Positions 3,345-63,421 of a stretch of DNA of 64,000 nt are shown here, piece by piece. Each line of letters starts with the position of its first letter. The first letter of the stretch is position 1. Below the pieces are notes generated by a model. The model was not told the origin of the DNA and made no database searches. It saw nothing but the letters and a program-made list of their open reading frames with translations. A program made the translations under genes and the position numbers. This DNA is from a phage: sequence record NC_094493.1. The stretch is one strand, 5' to 3'.

Positions 3345-4328
3345 TTAACCTTTCACGAAGTGGTTATTAAGCAGTTGTCTGTGCTGAACCCACCCACAAA
3401 AGTTGGCAGACCAGAATTTACCATCACGGTCTTGATGGGTTACACCTTCCTGCCAAGTACTGATGTCTTGTGTGATTTCACATGAAGACAGGTAGTAGTT
3501 TAAACGTTCCATTGCGTTATCGTGATCCATAGGTGTTGCCTGGTGCTCGTAAGGGCTTGCATGAATACGATCCCCACCAATCAATTTTTTAGCCACACTA
3601 TCTGCCTTTTCAAACGTGCTGTCAATATTTCGATAAGATACTTGTGCACAGCAACTAGCACTGATAGACAGAGCTTCTTTAGTATCGAGAATGCAGAGCT
3701 TTCCTTCTGTGTCACGTACAGCGTAGTTAAACTCTCCGTCCAAATAAACGTGCTCTACATATGGGGTGTGCCATTGACCCGGTTTAAGGATTTCAGGAGT
3801 GCTATTCTCAAGAGCCTCCCACATACAATTAGCTAACATCTGAATCGTAGGATCCGCATCGTGCCAGCAACGGAGGTGGAAAAAATTATTCCACTCGGTG
3901 CTTGTTACAACTGTTTTCATGCGCTGGAACGGCTCCACTAAGCGGTTACATACTTGCTTATGGTAACCAGCAAGGGCGAACTTCTCTGCATGCCAAGCGG
4001 CGTTTTTTGCAGCTTCTTTCCAAAACTCTTCAGGAGTTAGCTCCATGTCAGTGTACTCTACACGGATCTTTTGATCGTGTTCCCCACCATCTTCCATTCC
4101 TCGCTTATTTACACCGAAGCGAACTGGCATTGCCGGATTCTCCACAATCTGTTGCAGCATCTTGCCGACAGGTACTGCACGGGAAGACATGGCGTTTCGG
4201 CTGAACACTCGGTGCGTCATAAGCTCTGAGTGAATAATTCGAGGATACTCTAGTTCAAAAGTGGTGATACGCTTACCTTTCTCGGAAATGCTGTCAGCAA
4301 TAATCTTTGCAGTGCACAGTTTTAGCAT
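3345..4328 (-). CDS. ThyX-like (flavin-dependent thymidylate synthase fold) protein, divergent
   Basis: THRVFSRNAMSSR matches the spacing of the ThyX RHRxxSxxxxSxR signature but with Thr in place of the first Arg; later LR...DA...IQ segment also ThyX-like; 327 aa is longer than typical ThyX. Confidence 0.45.
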   Translation of the reverse strand: MLKLCTAKIIADSISEKGKRITTFELEYPRIIHSELMTHRVFSRNAMSSRAVPVGKMLQQIVENPAMPVRFGVNKRGMEDGGEHDQKIRVEYTDMELTPEEFWKEAAKNAAWHAEKFALAGYHKQVCNRLVEPFQRMKTVVTSTEWNNFFHLRCWHDADPTIQMLANCMWEALENSTPEILKPGQWHTPYVEHVYLDGEFNYAVRDTEGKLCILDTKEALSISASCCAQVSYRNIDSTFEKADSVAKKLIGGDRIHASPYEHQATPMDHDNAMERLNYYLSSCEITQDISTWQEGVTHQDRDGKFWSANFCGWVQHRQLLNNHFVKG

Positions 4329-4528
4329 TATTTAGCTCTCCTTGTTTTAATTTTGGAAATTTCGTCTGGGTTTATGTTGGCCTTAAATGCAAGGTATCTG
4401 TTGAACATGTCAGAGCACATATCTTGGGTGATCCTAGAGGCATACACTAGCTTACCTCCTAGATCATACACCTCTAGCCAGTCACCGTATCTGACTACAG
4501 GATCGCCACCTTTAGAACATCTGCCCAT
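4328..4528 (-). CDS. Hypothetical protein (66 aa)
   Basis: Small ORF coupled between ThyX-like and HAD genes. Confidence 0.3.
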   Translation of the reverse strand: MGRCSKGGDPVVRYGDWLEVYDLGGKLVYASRITQDMCSDMFNRYLAFKANINPDEISKIKTRRAK

Positions 4529-4529
4529 T

Positions 4530-5123
4530 TCAAATACCTTCTAAAAACTTTCCTATTTTATACCAGCTATTGGCGGTATAGTCAACACTGACCTTTAACT
4601 CCTCGAATTGCTCATAAGGCGTATCTTTTAGGATTTTAATAACTTCAGGTCGTGAAGCGAATTGGTTAAGGTATTCATGCCTGTCGTCAATTATAACATC
4701 TACAGCCACATTTCCTTTGAAATGTGTGGCGTAGAAGCCGTGACCCTGGGTGTGATCGTCCAGATCCATAAAATCACTGGTCCAACGCTTTAAGAACCTT
4801 GATTTAGATGCAAGGTGACCTTTCTTGCATACCGAGATAAATGCAAGCTTGTGACCACGAGCCACCAAATCTTTCATAACCTCAATAGCCCCCTCTTCAG
4901 GCTTAAGAAAGTCGTAGAGGAATGGGTCACTCCAGAAATCAAAAGGCCCTATGATGTTTTCTTTGGGGCGATCAGGCCAATACTTTGACAGATCGTAATA
5001 CATCAGTCCATTAGAAGGTTTAGCGACTGTCTTACTGGCTGGACCATACAAACGCTCCAACCACTCCCACCATGCTGTTCCTGAATCTACCAGTGTCAAA
5101 TCTACATCAATTCCGATTAACAT
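4530..5123 (-). CDS. HAD-superfamily phosphatase, possibly a deoxyribonucleotidase
   Basis: N-terminal IDVDLTLVD fits HAD motif I (DxDxT). Confidence 0.5.
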   Translation of the reverse strand: MLIGIDVDLTLVDSGTAWWEWLERLYGPASKTVAKPSNGLMYYDLSKYWPDRPKENIIGPFDFWSDPFLYDFLKPEEGAIEVMKDLVARGHKLAFISVCKKGHLASKSRFLKRWTSDFMDLDDHTQGHGFYATHFKGNVAVDVIIDDRHEYLNQFASRPEVIKILKDTPYEQFEELKVSVDYTANSWYKIGKFLEGI

Positions 5124-44774: not shown

Positions 44775-45443
44775 ATGGCTGTAGCTTATCCTACAATACC
44801 AATTCCAGATCTTGAAGATGCAGAAACAGTCCTGAGTGATGACTTCTTGGTTGTCAACCAGACTGATGGGACAAGAAAGGCTAAGATTGACGATGTTGTC
44901 AACGATCTTAGTATTACTAAGATAGTCTATTTCACAGAGGGTGGTTATCTTAAGAGCAAGAAGGACTTTGCTTATGACCCAGAGACTAAGCGCTACTACA
45001 CGTGGAACGGGGATTATCCTAAAATAATCCTCCCAGACTCCACTGTAGAGGGTGCTGGGGGCGTGTCTGCAAATGCCTGGTCTGTTTTTGGTGAGCTTGC
45101 TGCAACTTCTTCTGGCAGAATAGTTGATTACGGATCTATCGGTGGTCAGCTTGATATGGATCTTGAAGTTGCGGATACCTTTAAGGTTCGACTAACTTCA
45201 AATACCACAATCTCTTTTGAAAATCAAACAGAAGGTCTTGAAGGGGTGGCGAGAACTATAACCGTATGCATTACTCAGACCTCTGGCGGCAACAAAGTCT
45301 ATTGGCCTGGTAATGTTAAATGGTCCTACGGAAGAGATCCTATCCTAACATTTACAGCTGGTGCAACAGATATTTTCAAGTTGGAAACCTACGACAACGG
45401 GTTAACTTGGTACGGGGCACTGATTATCGCAGGAGCTATCTAA
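44775..45443 (+). CDS. Tail protein sharing an N-terminal domain with the long fibre
   Basis: DDFLVVNQTDGTRKAKIDDVV parallels EDDYLVVQQPDLTRRVKIGDVV in the 48078 gene. Confidence 0.4.
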   Translation: MAVAYPTIPIPDLEDAETVLSDDFLVVNQTDGTRKAKIDDVVNDLSITKIVYFTEGGYLKSKKDFAYDPETKRYYTWNGDYPKIILPDSTVEGAGGVSANAWSVFGELAATSSGRIVDYGSIGGQLDMDLEVADTFKVRLTSNTTISFENQTEGLEGVARTITVCITQTSGGNKVYWPGNVKWSYGRDPILTFTAGATDIFKLETYDNGLTWYGALIIAGAI

Positions 45444-45444
45444 G

Positions 45445-48042
45445 ATGCGTATTCAACATAACATTGATAACGTATTTCAGATGATTGAGGGGCACAGGAA
45501 GTGCCTCGATAACAACACAGGTATTACCAACACCCCTACACAAAATAAGCTAGTAAACCCTGATGGTCTTATAGCTGCAGGGTGGGCAGGTAATAAGATA
45601 AATAATGATTGGGCAATGCATGAGTCCCAAGCTGTGTTGATTCTGGGATACATTGAAGCATACAGGGCATCGAAAAGCGATTTCTATCTGGATAGGGCAA
45701 AAGATGCTTGGGAAGCTTACAATAGCCATCTTCTGGGCGCATATGCAGTAGAAAGTAAAATGCAAAGATTGTCCCACTACCCTCTATCCACAGATGGGGT
45801 TCCATCACATGGTGGGTTTAAAGATGTGGTGGTGTCTTTTACCAACGGTAGAGGAAAAATCCCAGCTGGATCTCCGACATGGGGGGAATACCTGGACAAG
45901 GCATTCCAAGCGTATAAAGGTGTGTTAGGAAGAAACACTGTAGACTCTGATGTTTACGGTGGCACAGATGCTAACCCAGATTGGACAACATCCGGATTAA
46001 ATTGGTGGGTTGAGTGGTACATAGCATGGGATGGTAACCGCTATTGGGCTAACGGGAGCATAGCCGACAGTGGGCATACGTCTATAGAGTTCGGCACAAT
46101 CCAATTACAAGATAAGGGTGTTACAGGAAGCCACAAGGTGACCTATTGTGTAAGATTACCTCAAGAGCAGGGTGGATCGGTGATACCTGCTGGATCCCCT
46201 GTAATTGTAAATCCTATAAACGTGGTTGCAGATAATCAGGCCCCAGAGTTGGACGGGGAAGAAATGTGGTGTGACGCTTGTTATCAACTCTACACCTTGA
46301 CAGGTGAGGAAAAGTATCACACCGCATTTAAACAGTCTTACAACAAGTTGCTTAATTTCAGTGATATAAACGCCTACGACAAACTGTTTAGGAAGACCAC
46401 GTTGATTAAGGCACCGTTTACAGATGGTACTTGTCTTGTTGCAGGAACAGTTCCTGTCATGAGCAGGGACAGTGACGGATATATCAATTTTAGAATGAAC
46501 GCACGCCAGCCTTGCGAAATAATTCAAAAAGGGACTACATACAAAATAGGCAGAGATGCTGAAATTGTTATGAATTTCGGAGGAGAAGGGGTTCTGTTCC
46601 AGCCACATTTCATCCTTAATGATGGCAACAATAACAAAAAACAGTACAGGATAGGTGTTCCTTTTGGAGGGGCAGAGGTAACAGAAATAGTTGCCAAGGT
46701 TACTGATTTCGTAGAGGTGGTTGGTAAAGACGGTAATCCATATCTCTTACCTAAAGAGGAAAACATTGTCGTAAGTGGTGGCGCTAGTGTTAGTATGCAG
46801 TATGATACCGACATTTACAACCACTCTGACAACTTCACCCGTTGTAATATAGTAAGAGGTAAAGTAACTTTCAATTTTGGAAGAGAGATTTCTTTAAACT
46901 CAGTAACTTATCGATCAGATGATGAGATGGTAAGGGTCAAATTTCTTGACAAAGACAGGTGGTTATGGTATGCTGATCTATATGCCACTAATGGACAATG
47001 GATAACAGAAACTCTTACTCTAGGAGATTTCAAACTAGATCCGACACAACCTCATCACACTGAAGAAGAGATTAAACCTTTCTTTGCTAATCCTAAGGGG
47101 CTCACCTCTGTAGATTTCAGCCTAAGCGACAGACAGATAGGTAATGGCTTGTTTGATCTGTACTGCGTAAACACGCTGCCGCAGTTCTATATTGCAGATA
47201 GGGATGCTTATCTAATATGGTTTAGCGTATGGATGGCAAGCAAGACAGAATCAACCGCCAAGGTTGGTGATTGCTATGTCAGAAACTACAAGCAAGGCGC
47301 ATACAGGCACACACCGGGTGTGTTCCCTGCCGGAAAGGTGATAGATAAGGAAAACTATCTCTTAGAGGAAAAGCCAAATTGGCCCTACCCTGGCATGCAA
47401 TACCCAGCAGTATACTGCATGGGTGCAGAAAACATAGATCGCCATAGATTGTCAAATACAATAGGCTTTCTGTATGACGCTCAAGTCTGGTATAATAATA
47501 CATTTAAGACAGAGGGTCCAGTTGCCTCACGTTATGTATGGCAGAGAGGTAATGAAGGGTTGACTGGTTGGTGGGAGATGGTAGATAACTCTAAGCTCCA
47601 GTCAAGATCTTTTGTTGCTGCGTGCCGCACAATCTATGAGCTCAAGAAACATAAAGAACCTGTTGATGAAAGATTATTCCTGTTCTGCCAGAAATGGGCA
47701 TGGTTCCTCAACAGATTCCAGTCATCTCATTCAGGAAATCTGCCTACAGACTTTAACACCTCTGGGGGATATTCTTATCAAGACAGAGGGGACAGGATGT
47801 GGGTGGTAGGTGAATGGCTTGCAGGTTGCTGCTGGCTAGGTCTGTGCGGGTATTCAGAGACAATACCCCAAATAGATATTGTTGTAGAAGCCTGTGTGAA
47901 GCTGCTGCAAAAGCACCACTTCATTAATGGGGATAATGTTTTAAACGGCTGCTGGGCAGTTTCTGATCCGGTTGGCTATCACTCTGGCGAAATCCTTCGC
48001 GGTCTGGGACTTTATGCTCAATACCGTGGATTGTACCTTTAA
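45445..48042 (+). CDS. Large tail/baseplate protein (865 aa), possible tailspike
   Basis: Large ORF within the tail module; no motif recognised. Confidence 0.35.
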   Translation: MRIQHNIDNVFQMIEGHRKCLDNNTGITNTPTQNKLVNPDGLIAAGWAGNKINNDWAMHESQAVLILGYIEAYRASKSDFYLDRAKDAWEAYNSHLLGAYAVESKMQRLSHYPLSTDGVPSHGGFKDVVVSFTNGRGKIPAGSPTWGEYLDKAFQAYKGVLGRNTVDSDVYGGTDANPDWTTSGLNWWVEWYIAWDGNRYWANGSIADSGHTSIEFGTIQLQDKGVTGSHKVTYCVRLPQEQGGSVIPAGSPVIVNPINVVADNQAPELDGEEMWCDACYQLYTLTGEEKYHTAFKQSYNKLLNFSDINAYDKLFRKTTLIKAPFTDGTCLVAGTVPVMSRDSDGYINFRMNARQPCEIIQKGTTYKIGRDAEIVMNFGGEGVLFQPHFILNDGNNNKKQYRIGVPFGGAEVTEIVAKVTDFVEVVGKDGNPYLLPKEENIVVSGGASVSMQYDTDIYNHSDNFTRCNIVRGKVTFNFGREISLNSVTYRSDDEMVRVKFLDKDRWLWYADLYATNGQWITETLTLGDFKLDPTQPHHTEEEIKPFFANPKGLTSVDFSLSDRQIGNGLFDLYCVNTLPQFYIADRDAYLIWFSVWMASKTESTAKVGDCYVRNYKQGAYRHTPGVFPAGKVIDKENYLLEEKPNWPYPGMQYPAVYCMGAENIDRHRLSNTIGFLYDAQVWYNNTFKTEGPVASRYVWQRGNEGLTGWWEMVDNSKLQSRSFVAACRTIYELKKHKEPVDERLFLFCQKWAWFLNRFQSSHSGNLPTDFNTSGGYSYQDRGDRMWVVGEWLAGCCWLGLCGYSETIPQIDIVVEACVKLLQKHHFINGDNVLNGCWAVSDPVGYHSGEILRGLGLYAQYRGLYL

Positions 48043-48077: not shown

Positions 48078-51000
48078 ATGGCTGATATTAAAGTTGTCAG
48101 AATTGAATCTCTTCCTGCCACTACCGCAGTGACAGAGGATGATTACCTGGTTGTTCAACAACCAGACCTGACTCGTCGTGTAAAAATTGGCGATGTTGTC
48201 CATGTGGATGGGACTGTTTCTCATGTAATCTCCTTTAAGGAAGGTGGTAAGTTAAACGGCCCAATGGATTTTGCCTACTTCGAAGAGGAAGACCTCTACC
48301 TGCGTTGGAAAGGCGAATTTCCACACACTGTTCCTGCACTATCTTCACCGTACTCCGATGGTGGGATTACTGACGCTGCATGGATGGTATATACTGACCC
48401 GTCCCTAAGGGAGGAGCTGGAATCTACCATTGGCGCATCTATGATCATGACAGCCGAAGGGCAGTCTGTCCAGGATGTAATGGATGTTACTGTTCAGACA
48501 GCTAACGATGCTAAAGCCCTTGCACAGCGTGTAGATTTTGGTACAGTGCACACTGTAGGTGATGTTATCCACCTTGATAACTTTGTTGGCCCTGCAGTTA
48601 TTGAAGAGGGAAGAACCACCAACTACCCTTCTGTAGCAGCTGGTGAAAAATTTCTGAACGGTGTGGTATCTCGTCGTGATACTACAACTGTTGATGGCAT
48701 TTTCCGTGGCGCTACCTCCGGAGCCATGTATACCATCGCAGTAACCAACGGTGTAGCGACAACAAAAAGAATAGCACTTCGTGATGAATTTAAACGCCTA
48801 GAGGCAAACAACCCAACAAGAACAGTTATCCGTGCTGGAGATGATTTAAACACGGCAGGGTACTTGCAGCTTGACGCAACAGGCCGTTGGGGTATGTGGA
48901 ACCAACAAACAGCCTCGTGGCAACCTCTTGCTATAGAGCAAGGCGGCACAGGGGCTAGAGATGCCGCTGGAGTCCGTATCAATATCGGTGCTTTCTATAA
49001 GCAACGTGCAGCCCTTGAGCCAAATTTCAATATCAATAACTTGACTGGTAATCAGGATGGTGTATACTACCAGCCGATGACTGCTTATGCAACTGAGGCA
49101 AATGGTTACCCTGCAGGTTCTGGTGCTGGTCACCTGATTGTTTGGCAGAACAATGCTAACGGCGGTACAGGTTGTCGTCAGGAATACTATCCATTCTCTA
49201 ACGTAGATGTTTGGTATTTAAGAACCTATCAGGCCAACACAAATCAGTGGACTGCATGGCAGCCGATGGTCAGACCTCGTAACGATGATACCTTTAGAGC
49301 GCACATCGGTCTCGGGTCTAGAAACTCCCCTACCTTTGGGCACCTTTACCTGTCTCAAAGTTCTGCTGATGTTAAGTCAGCATCAGGTATTGTTAACGGG
49401 GACAAATACAGCGCTGACGGTGTCCTTGAGCATGGATATAGGATCTACTCTGAGGTAAGAAACGACAATAAGGCTTGGTTGACAATCCACCTGCACAAAG
49501 GTGCAAAAGGATCTGAAACTCATAGATATTTAGGTTTCCGCGAAGATGGCGTGTTAGACTGCCCTAAATACATGCAGGTTGGGGATCTTACTGGTCAGCT
49601 GACAAACTGGGGTCTTGGAGAATGGATCCGTAGTTCAGGGGCAGAAAGAGGCTTCTGGGGGTCCAAGAAAGCCGCCAAGATGGTTGTCTGGGATGGTGGG
49701 ATGGACGAATCCGGTAACGGCACTCTGGAATGGGGTGTTTATAACAACCGGAAGGCCAAGTGGGAACCTTTACCTCAAGCCGCAGGTGGTACTGGGGCTA
49801 CAACTTTAGCAGATGCTCAGAATCTGTTCAAAGTTCCTATAGCAGCAGGTGTGAAAGACTTCTTAACACTGCCAAGAACCGCAGGGATGGAAGATGGGAA
49901 ATACTACCCGATCATCGTTAGAACAGATCCGTATTACGCCCCTTCGACAGGTACAGATATTACCATAGTCACCAGGTCTTCATCTGGAAATGACCCTATG
50001 AACTGTGCCACCCTGCAGTGTCACTATAGAACTGGCGGCTGGACGGACAGGGGAGACTCTTTCTACGGGGTAGTAAATTTCTACCAGAATGAAAAAGCAC
50101 TTCTTGGGATGGTTGCTCCAGCAAGGGGTAAACAAGAGTATGTTGCTTTCTATGCAGAGGCTCGTGCTTTCCCTGTCAGCATATACGCAAGTAGAAATGT
50201 TGTCGAAGTGTTTACCAGAGAGCAAGATTACCAGGTTGGGGCTGTAACAGCCAATCAGGATGGGGTTAAGTTCGTTGCACCTCTTCAGTCAGCAGATTTG
50301 AATCTCGCTATTCTTGGAGATAACAACACCAATACCAGACCTATTGTTGACTTCAAAGGTACTTCAGGGTTCTACACTGGCGGCGGCACACAGTGGCACT
50401 ATATAGGCACTGCTGAACGCTATGCTGTGATGAGCAAAATGAATATGCCTAAAGTCGAGCTATGGGCAGACGGTATTGACTACCTTTGCCCTGGTAGTCA
50501 GACCACTCGAAAAGCACTGTTCTCTAATGCAGGGTTCCAGGCTGCGTCGGAAGGAACAGAGGATCTGATCAACAACACCTTTACCTCTAAATGTGGTAAT
50601 GGTGCAAGACTGCAAGGACAGGCAGAGTTCAGATCTACTCCAGAAGCTGCTCAAGTTATTGTTCGTGATGTTGTAGGCACAGCTCATAGATTCTACAACT
50701 TCAACAAAGATGGCACTTTCTCAGCTCCGGGCGGTTTTGTATGCCACACGGGTGCAGACTGGAACAACCAGTTTGGGCCTAACAACCCGTCAAAAATAAT
50801 AGCTGGTAATGTTAACGGCCCACAAGATACCATGGTTGTAGGCGGGTTATCTGTAGGATTCTCGGGAAACTACGCTTTCCAGATTGCTGGCAGACAAAGT
50901 AACTTATACACCAGGTCTATAGAAGGTGGTAATCACCATCCCTGGAATAAGGCTATGCAACACAGGGGTCAAGGTCTTGGTTCTTCAGACCTTAACACCT

Positions 51001-51896
51001 ATCACGGATTGTGGGAAGGTATTTACCATCAGCCTGCAAATAATGATGCAACATATGATCGTCATTATCCCGTAAATGAGGCCGGAACACTTATTGTGTT
51101 GCAAAATAACGCCAATAACGGTAATGGGTGTGTTCAAGAATATATTACCTACCATGGCGATAGATTTACACGTTATGGGAATATGGTGAAACAGGTCTTC
51201 ACTTGGGGCCCGTGGACCCAAACAGGTGGTAATGGTGTTAGCTTCAGATATGGAGGAACAACTCCCGAAGGGGAAATACCGACCTCAGAGTTAAAGGTAT
51301 ATATTTCTGGAAGCCATGTTACTAATAACGGTGGCAACATGCCTGCGAATAGCGCTCATATGCACTATTGGGGCAACGGCAGCACAGGGGATCGCCCAAA
51401 CGTGTTAGAGTTTAAGGTTCTTGACGAGTCTCAAGCAAATTGGGTATGGCATTGCGGTACCTTGCCAGATAAATCAAGATATTTTGCTGTCAACGGTACG
51501 GTAGAATGTACTACTGTTAGCCAAAGTTCCGATAGGGACCTGAAGGATAACATAGAGGTCATACCTAACGCTCTGGAAGCAATTAGAAAAATGAAAGGTT
51601 ATACCTACACCTTGAAAGAGAATGGTATGCCTTATGCAGGCGTGATTGCTCAAGAGGTTATGGAAGCATTGCCAGAGGCAGTAGGATCTTTCGTAAAAAG
51701 GAAGGAAATAGAAGGTCCTACTCAAGACGGTATTCCTCTGATGACCGAGGAAAGGTTCTATAACGTTGACTACGCAGCTGTAACAGGCTTGCTTGTCCAG
51801 GTTTGCAGGGAACAGGACGATAAAATAACCGCCCTTGAGGAGCAGGTTAAAAAATTGACAGAGGTTGTTACTGGATTGCAAGAGAAACTGAAGTAA
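48078..51896 (+). CDS. Long tail fibre with C-terminal intramolecular chaperone (peptidase S74-like) domain
   Basis: 1272 aa; C-terminal SSDRDLKDNIEV...GYTYTLKENG matches the autoproteolytic chaperone signature. Confidence 0.65.
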   Translation: MADIKVVRIESLPATTAVTEDDYLVVQQPDLTRRVKIGDVVHVDGTVSHVISFKEGGKLNGPMDFAYFEEEDLYLRWKGEFPHTVPALSSPYSDGGITDAAWMVYTDPSLREELESTIGASMIMTAEGQSVQDVMDVTVQTANDAKALAQRVDFGTVHTVGDVIHLDNFVGPAVIEEGRTTNYPSVAAGEKFLNGVVSRRDTTTVDGIFRGATSGAMYTIAVTNGVATTKRIALRDEFKRLEANNPTRTVIRAGDDLNTAGYLQLDATGRWGMWNQQTASWQPLAIEQGGTGARDAAGVRINIGAFYKQRAALEPNFNINNLTGNQDGVYYQPMTAYATEANGYPAGSGAGHLIVWQNNANGGTGCRQEYYPFSNVDVWYLRTYQANTNQWTAWQPMVRPRNDDTFRAHIGLGSRNSPTFGHLYLSQSSADVKSASGIVNGDKYSADGVLEHGYRIYSEVRNDNKAWLTIHLHKGAKGSETHRYLGFREDGVLDCPKYMQVGDLTGQLTNWGLGEWIRSSGAERGFWGSKKAAKMVVWDGGMDESGNGTLEWGVYNNRKAKWEPLPQAAGGTGATTLADAQNLFKVPIAAGVKDFLTLPRTAGMEDGKYYPIIVRTDPYYAPSTGTDITIVTRSSSGNDPMNCATLQCHYRTGGWTDRGDSFYGVVNFYQNEKALLGMVAPARGKQEYVAFYAEARAFPVSIYASRNVVEVFTREQDYQVGAVTANQDGVKFVAPLQSADLNLAILGDNNTNTRPIVDFKGTSGFYTGGGTQWHYIGTAERYAVMSKMNMPKVELWADGIDYLCPGSQTTRKALFSNAGFQAASEGTEDLINNTFTSKCGNGARLQGQAEFRSTPEAAQVIVRDVVGTAHRFYNFNKDGTFSAPGGFVCHTGADWNNQFGPNNPSKIIAGNVNGPQDTMVVGGLSVGFSGNYAFQIAGRQSNLYTRSIEGGNHHPWNKAMQHRGQGLGSSDLNTYHGLWEGIYHQPANNDATYDRHYPVNEAGTLIVLQNNANNGNGCVQEYITYHGDRFTRYGNMVKQVFTWGPWTQTGGNGVSFRYGGTTPEGEIPTSELKVYISGSHVTNNGGNMPANSAHMHYWGNGSTGDRPNVLEFKVLDESQANWVWHCGTLPDKSRYFAVNGTVECTTVSQSSDRDLKDNIEVIPNALEAIRKMKGYTYTLKENGMPYAGVIAQEVMEALPEAVGSFVKRKEIEGPTQDGIPLMTEERFYNVDYAAVTGLLVQVCREQDDKITALEEQVKKLTEVVTGLQEKLK

Positions 51897-51902
51897 CTGT
51901 TT

Positions 51903-51929
51903 TGCCCTCGCTTCGGCGGGGGCTTTTTG
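51903..51929 (+). terminator. Rho-independent terminator
   Basis: GCCCTCGC-TTCG-GCGGGGGC followed by TTTTTG. Confidence 0.6.
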
Positions 51930-51935
51930 TTTGTA

Positions 51936-51964
51936 TTGCGTATTAACTCAAAATCTGGTAAAAT
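51936..51964 (+). promoter_or_regulatory. Sigma70-type promoter (TTGCGT, 17 bp, TAAAAT with upstream TG)
   Basis: Read directly from sequence. Confidence 0.45.
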
Positions 51965-51995
51965 AACTATCATGATTGTTTAACCTGGAGGCACA

Positions 51996-59010: not shown

Positions 59011-59697
59011 ATGGCAGAGATTAAGTCGGATGTTAACCACATCCACACTCTGCCAGATTTTGTTCAGGGGGGTCTTGACTACCTTCCTGGAGATTTTCTG
59101 GCTGAGAAGGTTAATTTGGTCACATTCTTAACCGTGTACCTTAAAAGGTTGGAGGATGTTGATAAGATGCTGGTAGGTTTGGCTGAAGGAAGATTGCTTA
59201 ACAATGCCAGCGGAAGATACCTTGATGAAGTTGGTAATCAACTTGGTATTCTTAGGAATGGACTTTCAGATGCTGATTTTCGTGCCACACTAATTATTCA
59301 GCAGGCTGCAGCATCAAGGGGCGGGACTCGCGAAGATGTCATCTCCACCTTGCGACAATTGTTCGGAAGAGACAATTTCGATACGTGGAAAGGAGACAAC
59401 TTCAGGTTTGACATAAATATTAGAAAAACTTGCTTTGACATATTGCAGTCCATCGATCAGATCTTAGATATGCTACCATTACCTTGTCATTTGCGTCTTA
59501 CAGAATCGCAAGGGCAAGCTTTTGGTTTTGAAGGGGACTCTACAGCTCTTGGCTTCGGATCAGTGTGGGAAGAAAACCAATTCGGAGTTGGTGGGCTGGC
59601 TACTTTGCTATATGTTCCTGACGTAAGACCTGATTGGGACACCACAACCATTTATTGTGAAAGTATTACAGTAAACGCAACTAGACAGGAGGGTTAA
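59011..59697 (+). CDS. Putative baseplate protein (228 aa)
   Basis: ORF coupled to neighbours. Confidence 0.3.
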   Translation: MAEIKSDVNHIHTLPDFVQGGLDYLPGDFLAEKVNLVTFLTVYLKRLEDVDKMLVGLAEGRLLNNASGRYLDEVGNQLGILRNGLSDADFRATLIIQQAAASRGGTREDVISTLRQLFGRDNFDTWKGDNFRFDINIRKTCFDILQSIDQILDMLPLPCHLRLTESQGQAFGFEGDSTALGFGSVWEENQFGVGGLATLLYVPDVRPDWDTTTIYCESITVNATRQEG

Positions 59698-61769
59698 TGG
59701 CAACAGCTGTTTTTAAACCTTACCGTGATTACTCTACAATGGCTGCACAGTTTCATTACCGAACAGTTCAGGATACTGCCGTTCCTGGTAGGGATTATAA
59801 TCATGCTGAGGGCGATGTAACTATCCCAATTGGGGCAACCAGTATTGAGATCCCCGTGGAAATTGTTGACAAATTACCCAACAGGTTACCAAGAAGCTTC
59901 TTTATGGAGTTTTCATCAAAATCTCAAGGAGTGATGATTGGGACACAAAGGGCGAAATGTACAATAGTTTCAGATGAGAATCTTGACAGGATAGCTTGGG
60001 ATACTGTTGAGGAGAGAATGTTTCACCCAAGATATTGGGTTACAACCACTCAGCAGACTGAAAGTACCTGTATTGTTGCAGATAACAACTGTTGTATTAA
60101 CCGTTTAGTGTCAAGAACATATGGAGGTATGGCCGGGTGCATTTGGGAAACAGTTGATAAGTATGACCATTTCGGTATTGGGTTTGATGATCACTATGAG
60201 ATGAGAAACACCAAGCTTTGGTTCAGAATGTCAATAACCAATGCCAGCAACTTCTCCACCCCTGAAAAGATGATTATGACTGTAGACCTTGTTGATGGCA
60301 CAATCATCTATGTTCCTTTAGCTCAATATGCTGCCAGCATCTCAGAGGATAAGAATGTTGCAGAGATTCATATTGATTTCGAGGACTGCGTCGGGATGGA
60401 TCAGAACAACAACATGATGGGTGTTGATCCTCGCCAGGTGAGAAGGATTTTAATACCGCTTATGCCTAAAGATTGGGTAAGTAATAGCACAGACCCGAGA
60501 ACGGAAAATGTAGAGTGTGAGTTGCGCCTAGATCTGCTTCAGCCAGACACGGGCTGGAAAATGATGCAACTTAACAATATTCAGGTTAAAGAGCACGACG
60601 TTGGGATCTGCACCGCATATGACGATATGTGGAACGTATCTCCTTTAAGGGTGTTGAACAATATCAAGCGTCTGGGCTATACCGGAACCATAAACCATTA
60701 TGTTGGTATGAGTCATTATTATGACTACACATGGTCAGGAACCCAATGGTCTATAAACAGAACAGGAGCGCTAAACGCTGCAGCTTATAAATGGCATGAT
60801 GATTTTATGTACAATGCCAAACGACATAACTTCGACGTTATGCAGTCTGTAAGTTTTGAGCTTTACAGCGATGCCTGTCCGTTGGAATGGACCCAAAGAG
60901 ACTGGAACGATAACTACGCTAAAACAGGGTATACACCTTGTAGCTACCTCCTGTCTCCAACCATTGAAGAGGGTATGAATTTCCTTACTGCAGTATTTAA
61001 GAATTTTGCATCAGCCGCTATGAGAAACAACCTGCCAGTGATTATGCAGGTTGGTGAACCATGGTGGTGGTACAATACCGATACTCGTAGACCTTGTATT
61101 TATGATTACCCTACAAAGCAGGCGTTTTATGATGAGACAGGTGAGTATGCATTAGATATTGGGACTATTGACGATCCTAAAACTGGCGGTGTTTACGACA
61201 AGTATGTAGCATTTTGTCGTGGTAAGCTTGGCGCTCGTATTGCGGCTATTTCAAAGGCAATAAAGGCACACGCTGCATCAGCTCAGATGACAGCTCTGCT
61301 GTTTTTCCCAACCATTATGGAAACCGAGCTTACGCAAAAGCTGAACCTTGCTGACCAATATAAAAAAGAAGCAGGTGCTCTTGATTTCTTCTGCACCGAG
61401 TGCTACGATTGGGTAATGCAGGGGGGTATTGAAAAGGCAAAAGAGTCTGTAAACATACCTATCGTTAAGTTAGGTTGGCAACCGTCTGAAATACAATACC
61501 TTGCAGGGTTCGTTCCTAGTAAAGAGCTTGCTCCGGTATATGGCTACGACCCAACTAGGAATTACCAAGAATTTTTATGGAGATGTATTTGCGGAAACAT
61601 GGCAACTATAGAGTATAGATACCCTGAGGTAAAACAGTATGTGTGGGCATACCCGCAAGTAATGTCTGACAGCATCACTGTTACCGCTAGAGATTCTACC
61701 GTGCTTCATATGGGGCAGGTTGCTCTGAAAGGGTATGTAGAGGATGTTGTCCCGCCAGACTTCTCATAA
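59697..61769 (+). CDS. Hypothetical tail protein (690 aa)
   Basis: Large ORF upstream of the tail-fibre gene. Confidence 0.3.
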   Translation: MATAVFKPYRDYSTMAAQFHYRTVQDTAVPGRDYNHAEGDVTIPIGATSIEIPVEIVDKLPNRLPRSFFMEFSSKSQGVMIGTQRAKCTIVSDENLDRIAWDTVEERMFHPRYWVTTTQQTESTCIVADNNCCINRLVSRTYGGMAGCIWETVDKYDHFGIGFDDHYEMRNTKLWFRMSITNASNFSTPEKMIMTVDLVDGTIIYVPLAQYAASISEDKNVAEIHIDFEDCVGMDQNNNMMGVDPRQVRRILIPLMPKDWVSNSTDPRTENVECELRLDLLQPDTGWKMMQLNNIQVKEHDVGICTAYDDMWNVSPLRVLNNIKRLGYTGTINHYVGMSHYYDYTWSGTQWSINRTGALNAAAYKWHDDFMYNAKRHNFDVMQSVSFELYSDACPLEWTQRDWNDNYAKTGYTPCSYLLSPTIEEGMNFLTAVFKNFASAAMRNNLPVIMQVGEPWWWYNTDTRRPCIYDYPTKQAFYDETGEYALDIGTIDDPKTGGVYDKYVAFCRGKLGARIAAISKAIKAHAASAQMTALLFFPTIMETELTQKLNLADQYKKEAGALDFFCTECYDWVMQGGIEKAKESVNIPIVKLGWQPSEIQYLAGFVPSKELAPVYGYDPTRNYQEFLWRCICGNMATIEYRYPEVKQYVWAYPQVMSDSITVTARDSTVLHMGQVALKGYVEDVVPPDFS

Positions 61770-61781
61770 TCAGGAGATAAA

Positions 61782-62822
61782 ATGTCAAAACCTAGTTTTC
61801 CATTAGAGATTTGGGCAGAGGAGGATCAGGTTCTGCCTAACACCCACAGACAGAACAGGCTACGCCCGATTGATGATTTGTGGAGAAAAGGTTGGGATCT
61901 TGGTCAAAAGCCCTCATGTGAAGAACTTAACTATATTTTCAATATGCTCGGAACTTGGGCAAAATACATTGCTGACGAGCAGATCCCCGCTCAAGAAGGC
62001 CGTTATCTGGTACGTGATAATAACTTGAGTGATCTTTTGAACATTCCTGTTGCCCGTAGAAACCTTGGGATTATTACTAAGGAAGAGGCAGACGCCAGGT
62101 ATGTAAAAGTTACAGGTGATACAATGACAGGCCCATTGGGTTTGCAACGTATCAACTTTAAAGCTGCCGAGACAGATAAGGCTTGGATAGAGACAACTAT
62201 TGGCCCAGATAAGACAACTCTCGACTTTGGGTTAAGTGATAATACCGGGTCGTTTGATGATGGTGGTACATCTACAGTAGATGCGTTTCGTTGGAGATTC
62301 CAGCCAACTCAGCCGGATATTAATCCAGAGTTCACTTTGATGTACCTTAACGCGATCACGGCTAACCGTGCGCTGTTGAAAGTGGTCGGCAATGTTGAAG
62401 TTGTCGATAACATGAGGTGTAATAACCTTACTATCAGCAATACAGCAACATTCACCAACTGTAATGTGGCTAGTCAGTTGACGACTGGGTCAGTGTATGT
62501 TAATGGTGGTGCAAGTTGTGACAGTATGGTTGTAAGAAGTCAGCACTGTGTTGTCGGTAACAGAAATGTGGTGCGCTCTGTGAATGGAGTGACGGCTAAC
62601 GGTAACGGTGATGTAACAATCACTATCCCGCAGACAGGTGTGCAAGACATCAGAATCGGTGCAAGACTTGTTGACGGCGTTTCTGAATCTCCAATTCGCA
62701 ACGGCTACGTTGTCACAGGCTGGCATTTCGGTGACAAAAAAGAGATGCGTGGTTCAACCTACTGGGCAGGACCTTTACAAAAACTTGTAAATGGTCAATG
62801 GATCACTGTTAATTATGCATAG
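61782..62822 (+). CDS. Tail fibre protein
   Basis: LSDLLNIPVARRNLGI motif common in fibre N-terminal regions; followed by an assembly chaperone. Confidence 0.5.
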   Translation: MSKPSFPLEIWAEEDQVLPNTHRQNRLRPIDDLWRKGWDLGQKPSCEELNYIFNMLGTWAKYIADEQIPAQEGRYLVRDNNLSDLLNIPVARRNLGIITKEEADARYVKVTGDTMTGPLGLQRINFKAAETDKAWIETTIGPDKTTLDFGLSDNTGSFDDGGTSTVDAFRWRFQPTQPDINPEFTLMYLNAITANRALLKVVGNVEVVDNMRCNNLTISNTATFTNCNVASQLTTGSVYVNGGASCDSMVVRSQHCVVGNRNVVRSVNGVTANGNGDVTITIPQTGVQDIRIGARLVDGVSESPIRNGYVVTGWHFGDKKEMRGSTYWAGPLQKLVNGQWITVNYA

Positions 62823-62836
62823 ATCGGAGGACTAGC

Positions 62837-63421
62837 ATGAAAATACTTCAAGAGTTTAAACTTTACCAACCGGGATCTGGCGAATACCACGCCAACAAGG
62901 AAACCAAGGAGCTGACCCCCCAAGAGGTTGAGGATTACACCGCATACACTGGGTATTTTTTACGTAATGATGATGGAGATTGGTATGTGCAGTCACGAAC
63001 ATTACGACAAGAAAATCCGGGTTGTATCTTCCTACTTGTTGACGAGAAGGGAATTCTTAAGACATCTACAGAAGAACCTGATGCCTTATGGCCTGCTCCA
63101 GGTCTTCGTGTGGTTATCGCCAAAAAAGAAGAGGTACCAGAAAACATTATGCTTCACCACGACGCTTTGCGTTTAGTTGGTGATGAATTTGTCACAGATA
63201 ATGAATTCTTTGTTCAACAGGCAGAGGGTGTCATAGAGACAGAACTTGCTTGGGCTACTGCTAGAATTGGTGCCTATCAAGACATGATTGACCTTGAATA
63301 TGATCTTACTGATGACCAGAAACGTAACATCAGAGATTTGAAAATGTACAGGGTAAAACTTCTTGAAATAGATACATCTAAAGCCCCTGACATTTTCTTC
63401 CCGGAGCGACCTACCCTCTAA
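62837..63421 (+). CDS. Tail fibre assembly protein (Tfa-like)
   Basis: C-terminal YQDMIDLEYDL...YRVKLLEIDTSKAPDIFFPERP resembles Tfa chaperones. Confidence 0.5.
   Translation: MKILQEFKLYQPGSGEYHANKETKELTPQEVEDYTAYTGYFLRNDDGDWYVQSRTLRQENPGCIFLLVDEKGILKTSTEEPDALWPAPGLRVVIAKKEEVPENIMLHHDALRLVGDEFVTDNEFFVQQAEGVIETELAWATARIGAYQDMIDLEYDLTDDQKRNIRDLKMYRVKLLEIDTSKAPDIFFPERPTL

Follow-up and report, generated by a model that had tools for sequence, protein, structure and literature searches.

The 64,000-nucleotide stretch of DNA analysed here (sequence record NC_094493.1; referred to below as the window) is part of the genome of a Vequintavirus, an rV5-like myophage, and includes the gene for a long side tail fibre. 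The question raised by this locus is whether the fibre ends in a self-cleaving intramolecular chaperone of the peptidase S74 type and, if so, at which residue the mature protein would terminate. Self-cleaving chaperones of this kind are textbook knowledge for endosialidases, for T5 pb1 and for S16 gp37. A preliminary description of the window had proposed such a domain from an SSDRDLKDNI...GYTYTLKENG signature near the end of a fibre of 1272 residues. Both strings are present in the ORF (...VSQSSDRDLKDNIEVIPNALEAIRKMKGYTYTLKENG...), whose coordinates, 48078..51896 on the + strand, agree with that length. The analysis presented below makes it very probable that residues 1151-1272 constitute a functional, self-cleaving S74 intramolecular chaperone. 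The features relevant to this conclusion are as follows.

48078..51896 (+), lateral (side) tail fibre precursor gene; ORF of 1272 aa, 139.4 kDa
48213..48386 (+), N-terminal Tail_spike_N attachment domain (TSP1/gp66-type), aa 46-103; PF18668, E = 2.6e-10
51225..51527 (+), distal tip of the mature fibre, aa ~1050-1150, beta-rich; placed from homologues, the LL12 junction and model strands
51393..51395 (+), codon of R1106, candidate folding-sensor arginine in a WG..R motif; placed by alignment
51528..51893 (+), intramolecular chaperone / peptidase S74 domain, S1151-K1272; 122 aa, 13.7 kDa, pI 4.8
51528..51530 (+), codon of S1151, predicted nucleophile and N-terminal residue of the released chaperone; kept in 49/49 homologues
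51543..51545 (+), codon of K1156, predicted general base of the Ser/Lys dyad; kept in 49/49 homologues
51681..51767 (+), predicted beta-hairpin, aa ~1202-1230; model strands E163-171 and E183-191
51771..51890 (+), C-terminal 40-residue helix, aa 1232-1271, predicted trimeric coiled coil; model helix H193-232
51904..51933 (+), intrinsic-terminator-like hairpin, GCCCTCGC-TTCG-GCGGGGGC followed by TTTTTGTTTG, 8 nt past the stop codon

The fibre gene and its C-terminal domain

Judged by its sequence, the product of ORF 48078..51896 is the orthologue of rV5 gp41 and of MaxBurger bas54_0027. All three share the same length, the same gene position and the SSDRDLKDNI motif; rV5 shows 94.7% nucleotide identity, and the MaxBurger protein (annotated as "lateral tail fiber protein", 1272 aa) is 94% identical at the amino acid level with no gaps, differing only by allelic substitutions that affect about 12 of the 122 chaperone residues. 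The locus occupies the position of rV5 gp41, with a gp42 orthologue on one side and a Dit-like gene on the other. The 3.8 kb surrounding the domain are 94-96% identical in nucleotide sequence to O157 typing phage 14, JES2013, rV5 and many BASEL isolates, and at least 76 phage genomes retain the intact ORF in its entirety. The PHROG family phrog_6578 ("tail fiber protein") matches the fibre from end to end. At the N-terminus, where the Tail_spike_N attachment domain lies, the fibre matches in sequence the same end of tailspike and fibre proteins in the PDB. Two antisense ORFs overlapping the end of the gene (51474-51881 and 51770-51973) were rejected as genes because no PHROG family matches them and the coding region around them is strongly conserved.

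Residues 1151-1202 score 55.6 bits (E = 6.3e-15) against the Pfam family PF13884 (Peptidase_S74, "chaperone of endosialidase"), whose gathering score is 22, and span positions 1-57 of its 58-position model. This is far beyond chance. The domain, whose boundaries are S1151 and K1272, is placed at the extreme C-terminus and takes up the last 122 of the 1272 residues; about 30 tail-fibre PHROG families align across this same part of the protein. Thus, the peptidase S74 assignment of the preliminary description is borne out by the Pfam match, as it is by the Ser/Lys dyad and the model fold considered below. The range it gave, 51520-51896, runs from the middle base of the S1148 codon to the last base of the TAA stop and covers residues 1148-1272 (125 aa); the exact domain corresponds to nt 51528-51893. 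No second copy of the domain was detected in a six-frame translation of the 64 kb window probed with a profile of the domain and its homologues (E <= 10), nor was the domain found in the 10 other tail proteins of the window.

Searches of the PDB with the domain profile retrieved the S16 gp37 tip (6F45, E = 1e-19) and the MyRF intramolecular chaperone (ICA) domain (7DC3, E = 3e-10), followed by 8JOV (a tail fibre), DT57C LtfA (8HQZ) and the GA-1 chaperone (3GUD). A search with the single sequence did not reach T5 or K1F, for which profile and fold searches were needed.

Catalytic residues, predicted cleavage site and predicted fold

The reading frame at the start of the domain is V1147-S1148-Q1149-S1150-S1151-D1152-R-D-L-K1156-D-N-I. 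A search of 5.8 billion proteins yielded a set of 51 homologues, 49 of which cover the S1151/K1156 site; the S-x4-K dyad is kept in every one of these 49. Equally invariant, in all 51 sequences, is the core G1188-x-IAQE...PE1200 (GVIAQE...PE). In a seven-sequence alignment that includes T5 pb1 and K1F gp17 (alignment A3), the invariant residues are G1099, R1106, S1151, K1156, G1188 and Q1192. S1151 and K1156 align with S1264/K1269 of T5 pb1 and with S911/K916 of the K1F endosialidase endoNF, and the dyad is also aligned with 3GUD, 6F45 and 7DC3. Specifically, S1151 corresponds to the first residue of 3GUD, the released GA-1 chaperone (SDERHK), and to the serine mutated in MyRF 7DC3. The Ser/Lys pair, S587/K592 in MyRF, is the catalytic dyad of the solved homologues (PMC4690869, PMC8326128), and the scissile bond lies on the N-terminal side of the serine, T1263|S1264 in T5 and P586|S587 in MyRF (PMC4690869, PMC8326128).

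By homology, the predicted scissile bond of the present fibre is S1150|S1151, between nt 51527 and 51528. The earlier suggestion that the mature fibre ends near residue 1150 was therefore as exact as homology allows, and the homology-based prediction agrees with it to the residue. The predicted products are a mature fibre of residues 1-1150 (125.7 kDa), ending in ...TVSQS, and a chaperone of residues 1151-1272 (13.7 kDa). The C-terminal semi-tryptic peptide of the mature form would be YFAVNGTVECTTVSQS, with a monoisotopic mass of 1704.77 Da before Cys alkylation; the tryptic peptide spanning the predicted cleavage site is YFAVNGTVECTTVSQSSDR (2062.93 Da). Peptides from the chaperone itself are DNIEVIPNALEAIR, GYTYTLK, EIEGPTQDGIPLMTEER, ITALEEQVK and LTEVVTGLQEK.

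An AlphaFold2 monomer model was made for aa 1040-1272 (a 233-aa query). Its mean pLDDT of 73 denotes moderate confidence, with blocks of 88-96 over query residues 201-233, the last 30 or so residues of the protein. The model shows a beta-rich tip, with strands at aa 1072-1138, and, past the cleavage site, an alpha/beta body made of short helices and strands, with helices at query residues 114-158; the hairpin and the long C-terminal helix listed above follow. When the model was compared to the PDB with Foldseek, the top three matches, each with a probability of 1.00, were 4UW8 (T5 pb1 with its chaperone), 3GW6 (the endoNF chaperone) and 7DC3. The TM-scores were low (0.3-0.5), as is expected of the monomer model of an intertwined trimer. 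We use the fold search as corroboration only: in the model, the alpha/beta body, the hairpin and the C-terminal helix appear as expected for an S74 domain. In the T5 chaperone, an alpha/beta domain bearing a long hairpin, the "tentacle", flanks a coiled coil (PMC4690869), and PCOILS had indicated a coiled coil in rV5 gp41 (PMC3606486). The modelled hairpin at aa ~1202-1230 is predicted to be the counterpart of the tentacle of T5 pb1 and endoNF.

The solved structures have a further element at the active site, a sensor arginine contributed by the neighbouring chain of the folded fibre (PMC4690869, PMC8326128). Since this arginine completes the site, cleavage occurs only after correct folding of the trimer (PMC4690869, PMC8326128). 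The sequence alignments suggest R1106 as a candidate for this residue, its role being assigned from PMC4690869 and PMC8326128. An arginine occupies the position in 7/7 sequences of alignment A3, where R1106 pairs with R1250 of T5 pb1 and R897 of K1F endoNF, and in 38 of the 43 homologues that are not gapped at this position. The spacing is peculiar, as 45 residues separate the arginine from the serine in this fibre, compared to 14 in T5 and endoNF. The greater distance is accounted for by a subfamily-specific insertion of ~31 residues, modelled as two strands forming a beta-hairpin (aa ~1107-1137). Two other placements of the sensor were tried and discarded: position 1137, at -14 from the serine, is an alanine, and R1134 (-17) is not conserved among homologues. 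The insertion occurs in a subfamily comprising Vequintavirus gp41, E. coli prophage fibres and T1-/T5-like side fibres.

Because the insertion falls between the WG..R motif and the serine, the cleavage checkpoint may be built differently in this subfamily. We regard it as unlikely, though conceivable, that the checkpoint departs from that of endoNF and T5 in the residue used or in its geometry, or else that the released tip recruits a separate adhesin.

Fate of the domain in the virion

By analogy with the solved homologues, the domain would trimerise, act as a chaperone and be cleaved off. The following sequence of events can be proposed. The C-terminal helices of three precursor chains would come together in a trimeric coiled coil, which would set the chains in register and template the folding of the beta-structured tip (aa ~1050-1150). 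When this tip has reached its correct fold, the active site would be completed by an arginine of the neighbouring chain, for which R1106 is the candidate; K1156 would then activate S1151, allowing it to attack the S1150-S1151 peptide bond. This attack would release the 13.7 kDa chaperone (S1151-K1272) and leave a mature fibre of 1150 residues and 125.7 kDa whose end, ...TVSQS, exposes the receptor-binding tip.

No biochemical demonstration of cleavage was found in the literature for this fibre or for any Vequintavirus orthologue; two sets of virion data bear on the matter. Mass spectrometry of rV5 virions identified 8 gp41 peptides, amounting to 8.1% coverage, the most C-terminal of which is YGGTTPEGEIPTPELK (aa 1058-1073). 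The presence of this tip peptide in the rV5 virion proteome indicates that the distal tip is part of the virion. None of the 8 peptides comes from the chaperone, an outcome with a chance probability of ~0.4 (0.38-0.45); as such, it is consistent with release but is not evidence for it. The second set of data comes from cryo-EM of MaxBurger virions in the RBPseg study, where the S74 domain of the TC12 fibre has no density (PMC12143355). The maps have resolutions of 7-9.5 Å, and the fibre in question, RBP_11, is probably bas54_0027, this being the only S74-bearing fibre. Vequintavirus genomes have a single place matching the S74 domain. The absent density, in a phage whose orthologue is 94% identical to the present fibre, is the best outside support for release of the chaperone.

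These data also bear on the reading that the mature fibre keeps the S74-like domain for good, as a structural cap or coiled-coil tip, whether because no cleavage takes place or because the cleaved domain remains firmly attached. Room for it is left by the fact that cleavage of this fibre is deduced by homology, by a mass spectrometric coverage of rV5 too shallow to exclude C-terminal peptides and by the unusual spacing between the candidate arginine sensor and the serine. However, strict conservation of both Ser and Lys would be superfluous in a purely structural cap, and the domain gives no density in MaxBurger virions (PMC12143355). Together, these observations render permanent retention of the domain very unlikely.

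Another reading accepts that the chaperone is cleaved off and holds that the tip so exposed is not what binds the receptor but docks a separate small adhesin, in the way that S16 gp37 docks gp38. It draws on the best sequence match in the PDB being S16 gp37 (6F45), whose tip carries gp38, and was suggested for MaxBurger by the RBPseg authors (PMC12143355). The surroundings of the gene do not favour it. The fibre ORF is followed by the terminator-like hairpin, which has an 8-pair stem with 7 G-C pairs (the region has 3 such sites versus 0.3 expected), and then by an ORF that matches a distal tail protein PHROG (Dit-like) and has no Pfam match. With a terminator and then a Dit-like gene at this position, no gene for a trans-acting chaperone or a gp38-like adhesin adjoins the fibre. 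A small gene of the TAP/gp38 family (Caudo_TAP/Tfa/gp38-type) was not found directly downstream of the fibre gene, and a scan of 13 neighbouring tail proteins gave no match to a GP38 family. Moreover, adhesin density is absent from the MaxBurger map (PMC12143355), and the homologous tip-plus-chaperone cassettes of E. coli prophages are terminal fibre proteins. Docking of a separate adhesin thus appears highly improbable. The window does contain a Caudo_TAP gene, which sits behind a different fibre gene (62837-63421). As to the possibility that the S74 match arose by chance or marks a degenerate domain that has lost its function, it is refuted by the Pfam score (E = 6e-15), the profile match to 6F45 (E = 1e-19), the intact catalytic residues and an intact ORF whose full length is retained in 76 phage genomes or more.

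An exchangeable cassette and its relatives

Release of a self-cleaving chaperone from the fibre, the reading that we favour, can be set beside the distribution of this segment among other phages, which is modular. Among E. coli prophage fibres and the side fibres of T1-like and T5-like phages there are relatives of aa ~1050-1272 with 45-70% identity, in which conservation is stronger in the chaperone half than in the tip half. The tip, the presumed substrate of the chaperone, and the chaperone itself travel as one exchangeable cassette spanning aa ~1050-1272. Alleles of the LL12/EmilHeitz type, present at the same locus, are 90% identical to the present fibre over aa 1-1049, and identity stops at ~1049. 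In this class of alleles (the 75%-coverage class), a 430-aa lectin-like head (phrog_1419, with a weak Laminin_G_3 match) replaces the S74 cassette, and an extra ORF of 110 aa (phrog_1361) is found directly downstream of the head. This ORF may encode a trans-acting assembly factor. The comparison of alleles agrees with the report that LL12 gp41 is without pfam13884 (Piya et al. 2020, PMC7229145), and the lectin-like head of the EmilHeitz allele is visible in the virion map (PMC12143355). The lack of a separate chaperone gene next to the present fibre and the occurrence of an extra ORF in LL12-type alleles are consistent with a chaperone functioning in cis.

Among characterised systems, T5 pb1, the top Foldseek match, is likewise a long side fibre with a C-terminal chaperone, an S-x4-K dyad, a WG..R arginine, a coiled coil and a beta-hairpin. 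Identity over the aligned region is only ~22%, however, and the bullet-shaped tip of T5 has no sequence similarity to the tip of this fibre. For T5 pb1, the purified mature protein, unlike the precursor, was shown to block adsorption. In K1F endoNF (3GW6, the founding member of MEROPS S74), S911/K916 and, by alignment, R897 have conserved equivalents and the fold matches, but the chaperone folds the triple beta-helix stalk of an enzymatic podovirus tailspike, and identity is ~18%. S16 gp37 (6F45), the distal long tail fibre of a Salmonella phage, is also a myovirus fibre and has an SSDRRIK motif; its tip carries the separate gp38 adhesin encoded downstream, whereas no such gene lies by the fibre studied here. 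The eukaryotic MyRF ICA domain (7DC3) belongs to the same domain family and shares the Ser/Lys mechanism and cleavage on the N-terminal side of the serine. MyRF differs in that no stalk arginine is used and the ICA domain remains on the membrane (PMC8326128).

The presence of an S74 domain in this fibre is already known, and it is ordinary, inasmuch as the same domain has been published for the near-identical fibres of rV5 and MaxBurger. Both the 3GW6 match and PF13884 were given for rV5 gp41 by Kropinski et al. (2013; PMC3606486); Piya et al. (2020) placed PF13884 at residues 1151-1200 of the same protein (PMC7229145); and the RBPseg paper mentions an S74 domain of Vequintavirinae fibres and its absence from virion maps (PMC12143355). 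The main value of the present analysis lies in annotation and engineering. The mature receptor-binding fibre would be residues 1-1150 and not 1-1272. Recombinant expression or host-range swaps must carry the tip and the chaperone as one cassette (aa ~1050-1272), and the junction at which natural alleles recombine, aa ~1049, shows a point at which exchange is tolerated.

Exchange at the lateral tail fibre's distal end

Sequence comparison showed the LL12-type Vequintaviruses, whose fibre alleles lack the S74 domain, to share 90% identity with the 1272-aa fibre across residues 1-1049. Beyond this point, the tip and chaperone of the fibre are replaced by a 430-aa lectin-like head (phrog_1419). 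The LL12-type allele also carries an additional 110-aa ORF (phrog_1361), possibly encoding a trans-acting assembly factor. The distal exchange is a natural allele swap. Its junction coincides exactly with the end of the second copy of a domain of ~80-100 aa found twice inside the fibre, the two copies being ~31% identical. The positions of these features, and of a hairpin after the fibre gene, are:

Window ~49023-49262 (aa 316-395): fibre repeat copy 1, …GVYYQP…AGHLIVWQNNANGGTGCRQEY…
Window ~50976-51224 (aa 967-1049): fibre repeat copy 2, …GIYHQP…AGTLIVLQNNANNGNGCVQEY…
Window 51225 (fibre aa ~1049) onward, and 3448-5072 in the LL12 sequence (L002): allele-swap region
Window 51904-51933: strong hairpin resembling an intrinsic terminator (TTCG loop, T-run), located 8 nt past the fibre stop codon

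The authors of the RBPseg study proposed a "mobile pseudo-domain" as a facilitator of recombination (PMC12143355), and the internal repeat of the fibre may be such an element. Given the position of the terminator-like hairpin, the transcription unit appears to end with the fibre gene.

Fibre homologues in public records

The full-length fibre gene of this E. coli Vequintavirus (window 48078-51896) is 91-94% identical to sequences in 18 GenBank records named "Campylobacter phage". These unannotated entries, ~128-143 kb in size and listing C. jejuni as host, look like Vequintaviruses with doubtful host labels. In one database homologue of the C-terminal part of the fibre (P0110), an unrelated N-terminal part is joined directly to the chaperone. 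Since the fusion point lies downstream of the SD..K motif, the catalytic Ser and Lys are absent; this protein probably arose by recombination or as a chimera in assembly.

Other proteins of the tail module

Additional tail genes of the window, and the Tail_spike_N segment of the fibre, are as follows:

Window 44775-45443: 222-aa gp43 orthologue, with Tail_spike_N
Window 45445-48042: 865-aa gp42 orthologue; the MaxBurger annotation reads "lateral tail fiber protein with glycosidase domains"
Window 48078-48386: Tail_spike_N of the fibre
Window 59697-61769: 690-aa ORF, rV5 gp34 by position
Window 61782-62822: 346-aa ORF, rV5 gp33-type short fibre by position
Window 62837-63421: 194-aa ORF following the latter and containing the tail-fibre-assembly domain Caudo_TAP (E = 8e-12)

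The N-terminal Tail_spike_N domain (CBA120 TSP1/gp66-type) was matched in both the gp43 orthologue and the fibre (E ~2e-10 each). Its presence in the two proteins suggests that the fibres are attached to each other, or to a shared adaptor, in a branched complex. The gp42 orthologue gave no Pfam match at E <= 0.1; its sole match in Pfam and PHROG was to a PHROG tail-protein family. The 690-aa ORF matched the TIM-barrel and N-terminal domains of "non-contractile tail sheath protein" (E = 2e-79), as well as a Calx-beta domain. The former family name is not expected for a baseplate-region protein of a myovirus.

Whereas the predicted chaperone of the fibre, the gp41 orthologue, would act in cis, the Caudo_TAP protein acts in trans. 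The latter is a trans-acting chaperone, representing a second strategy within one tail module.
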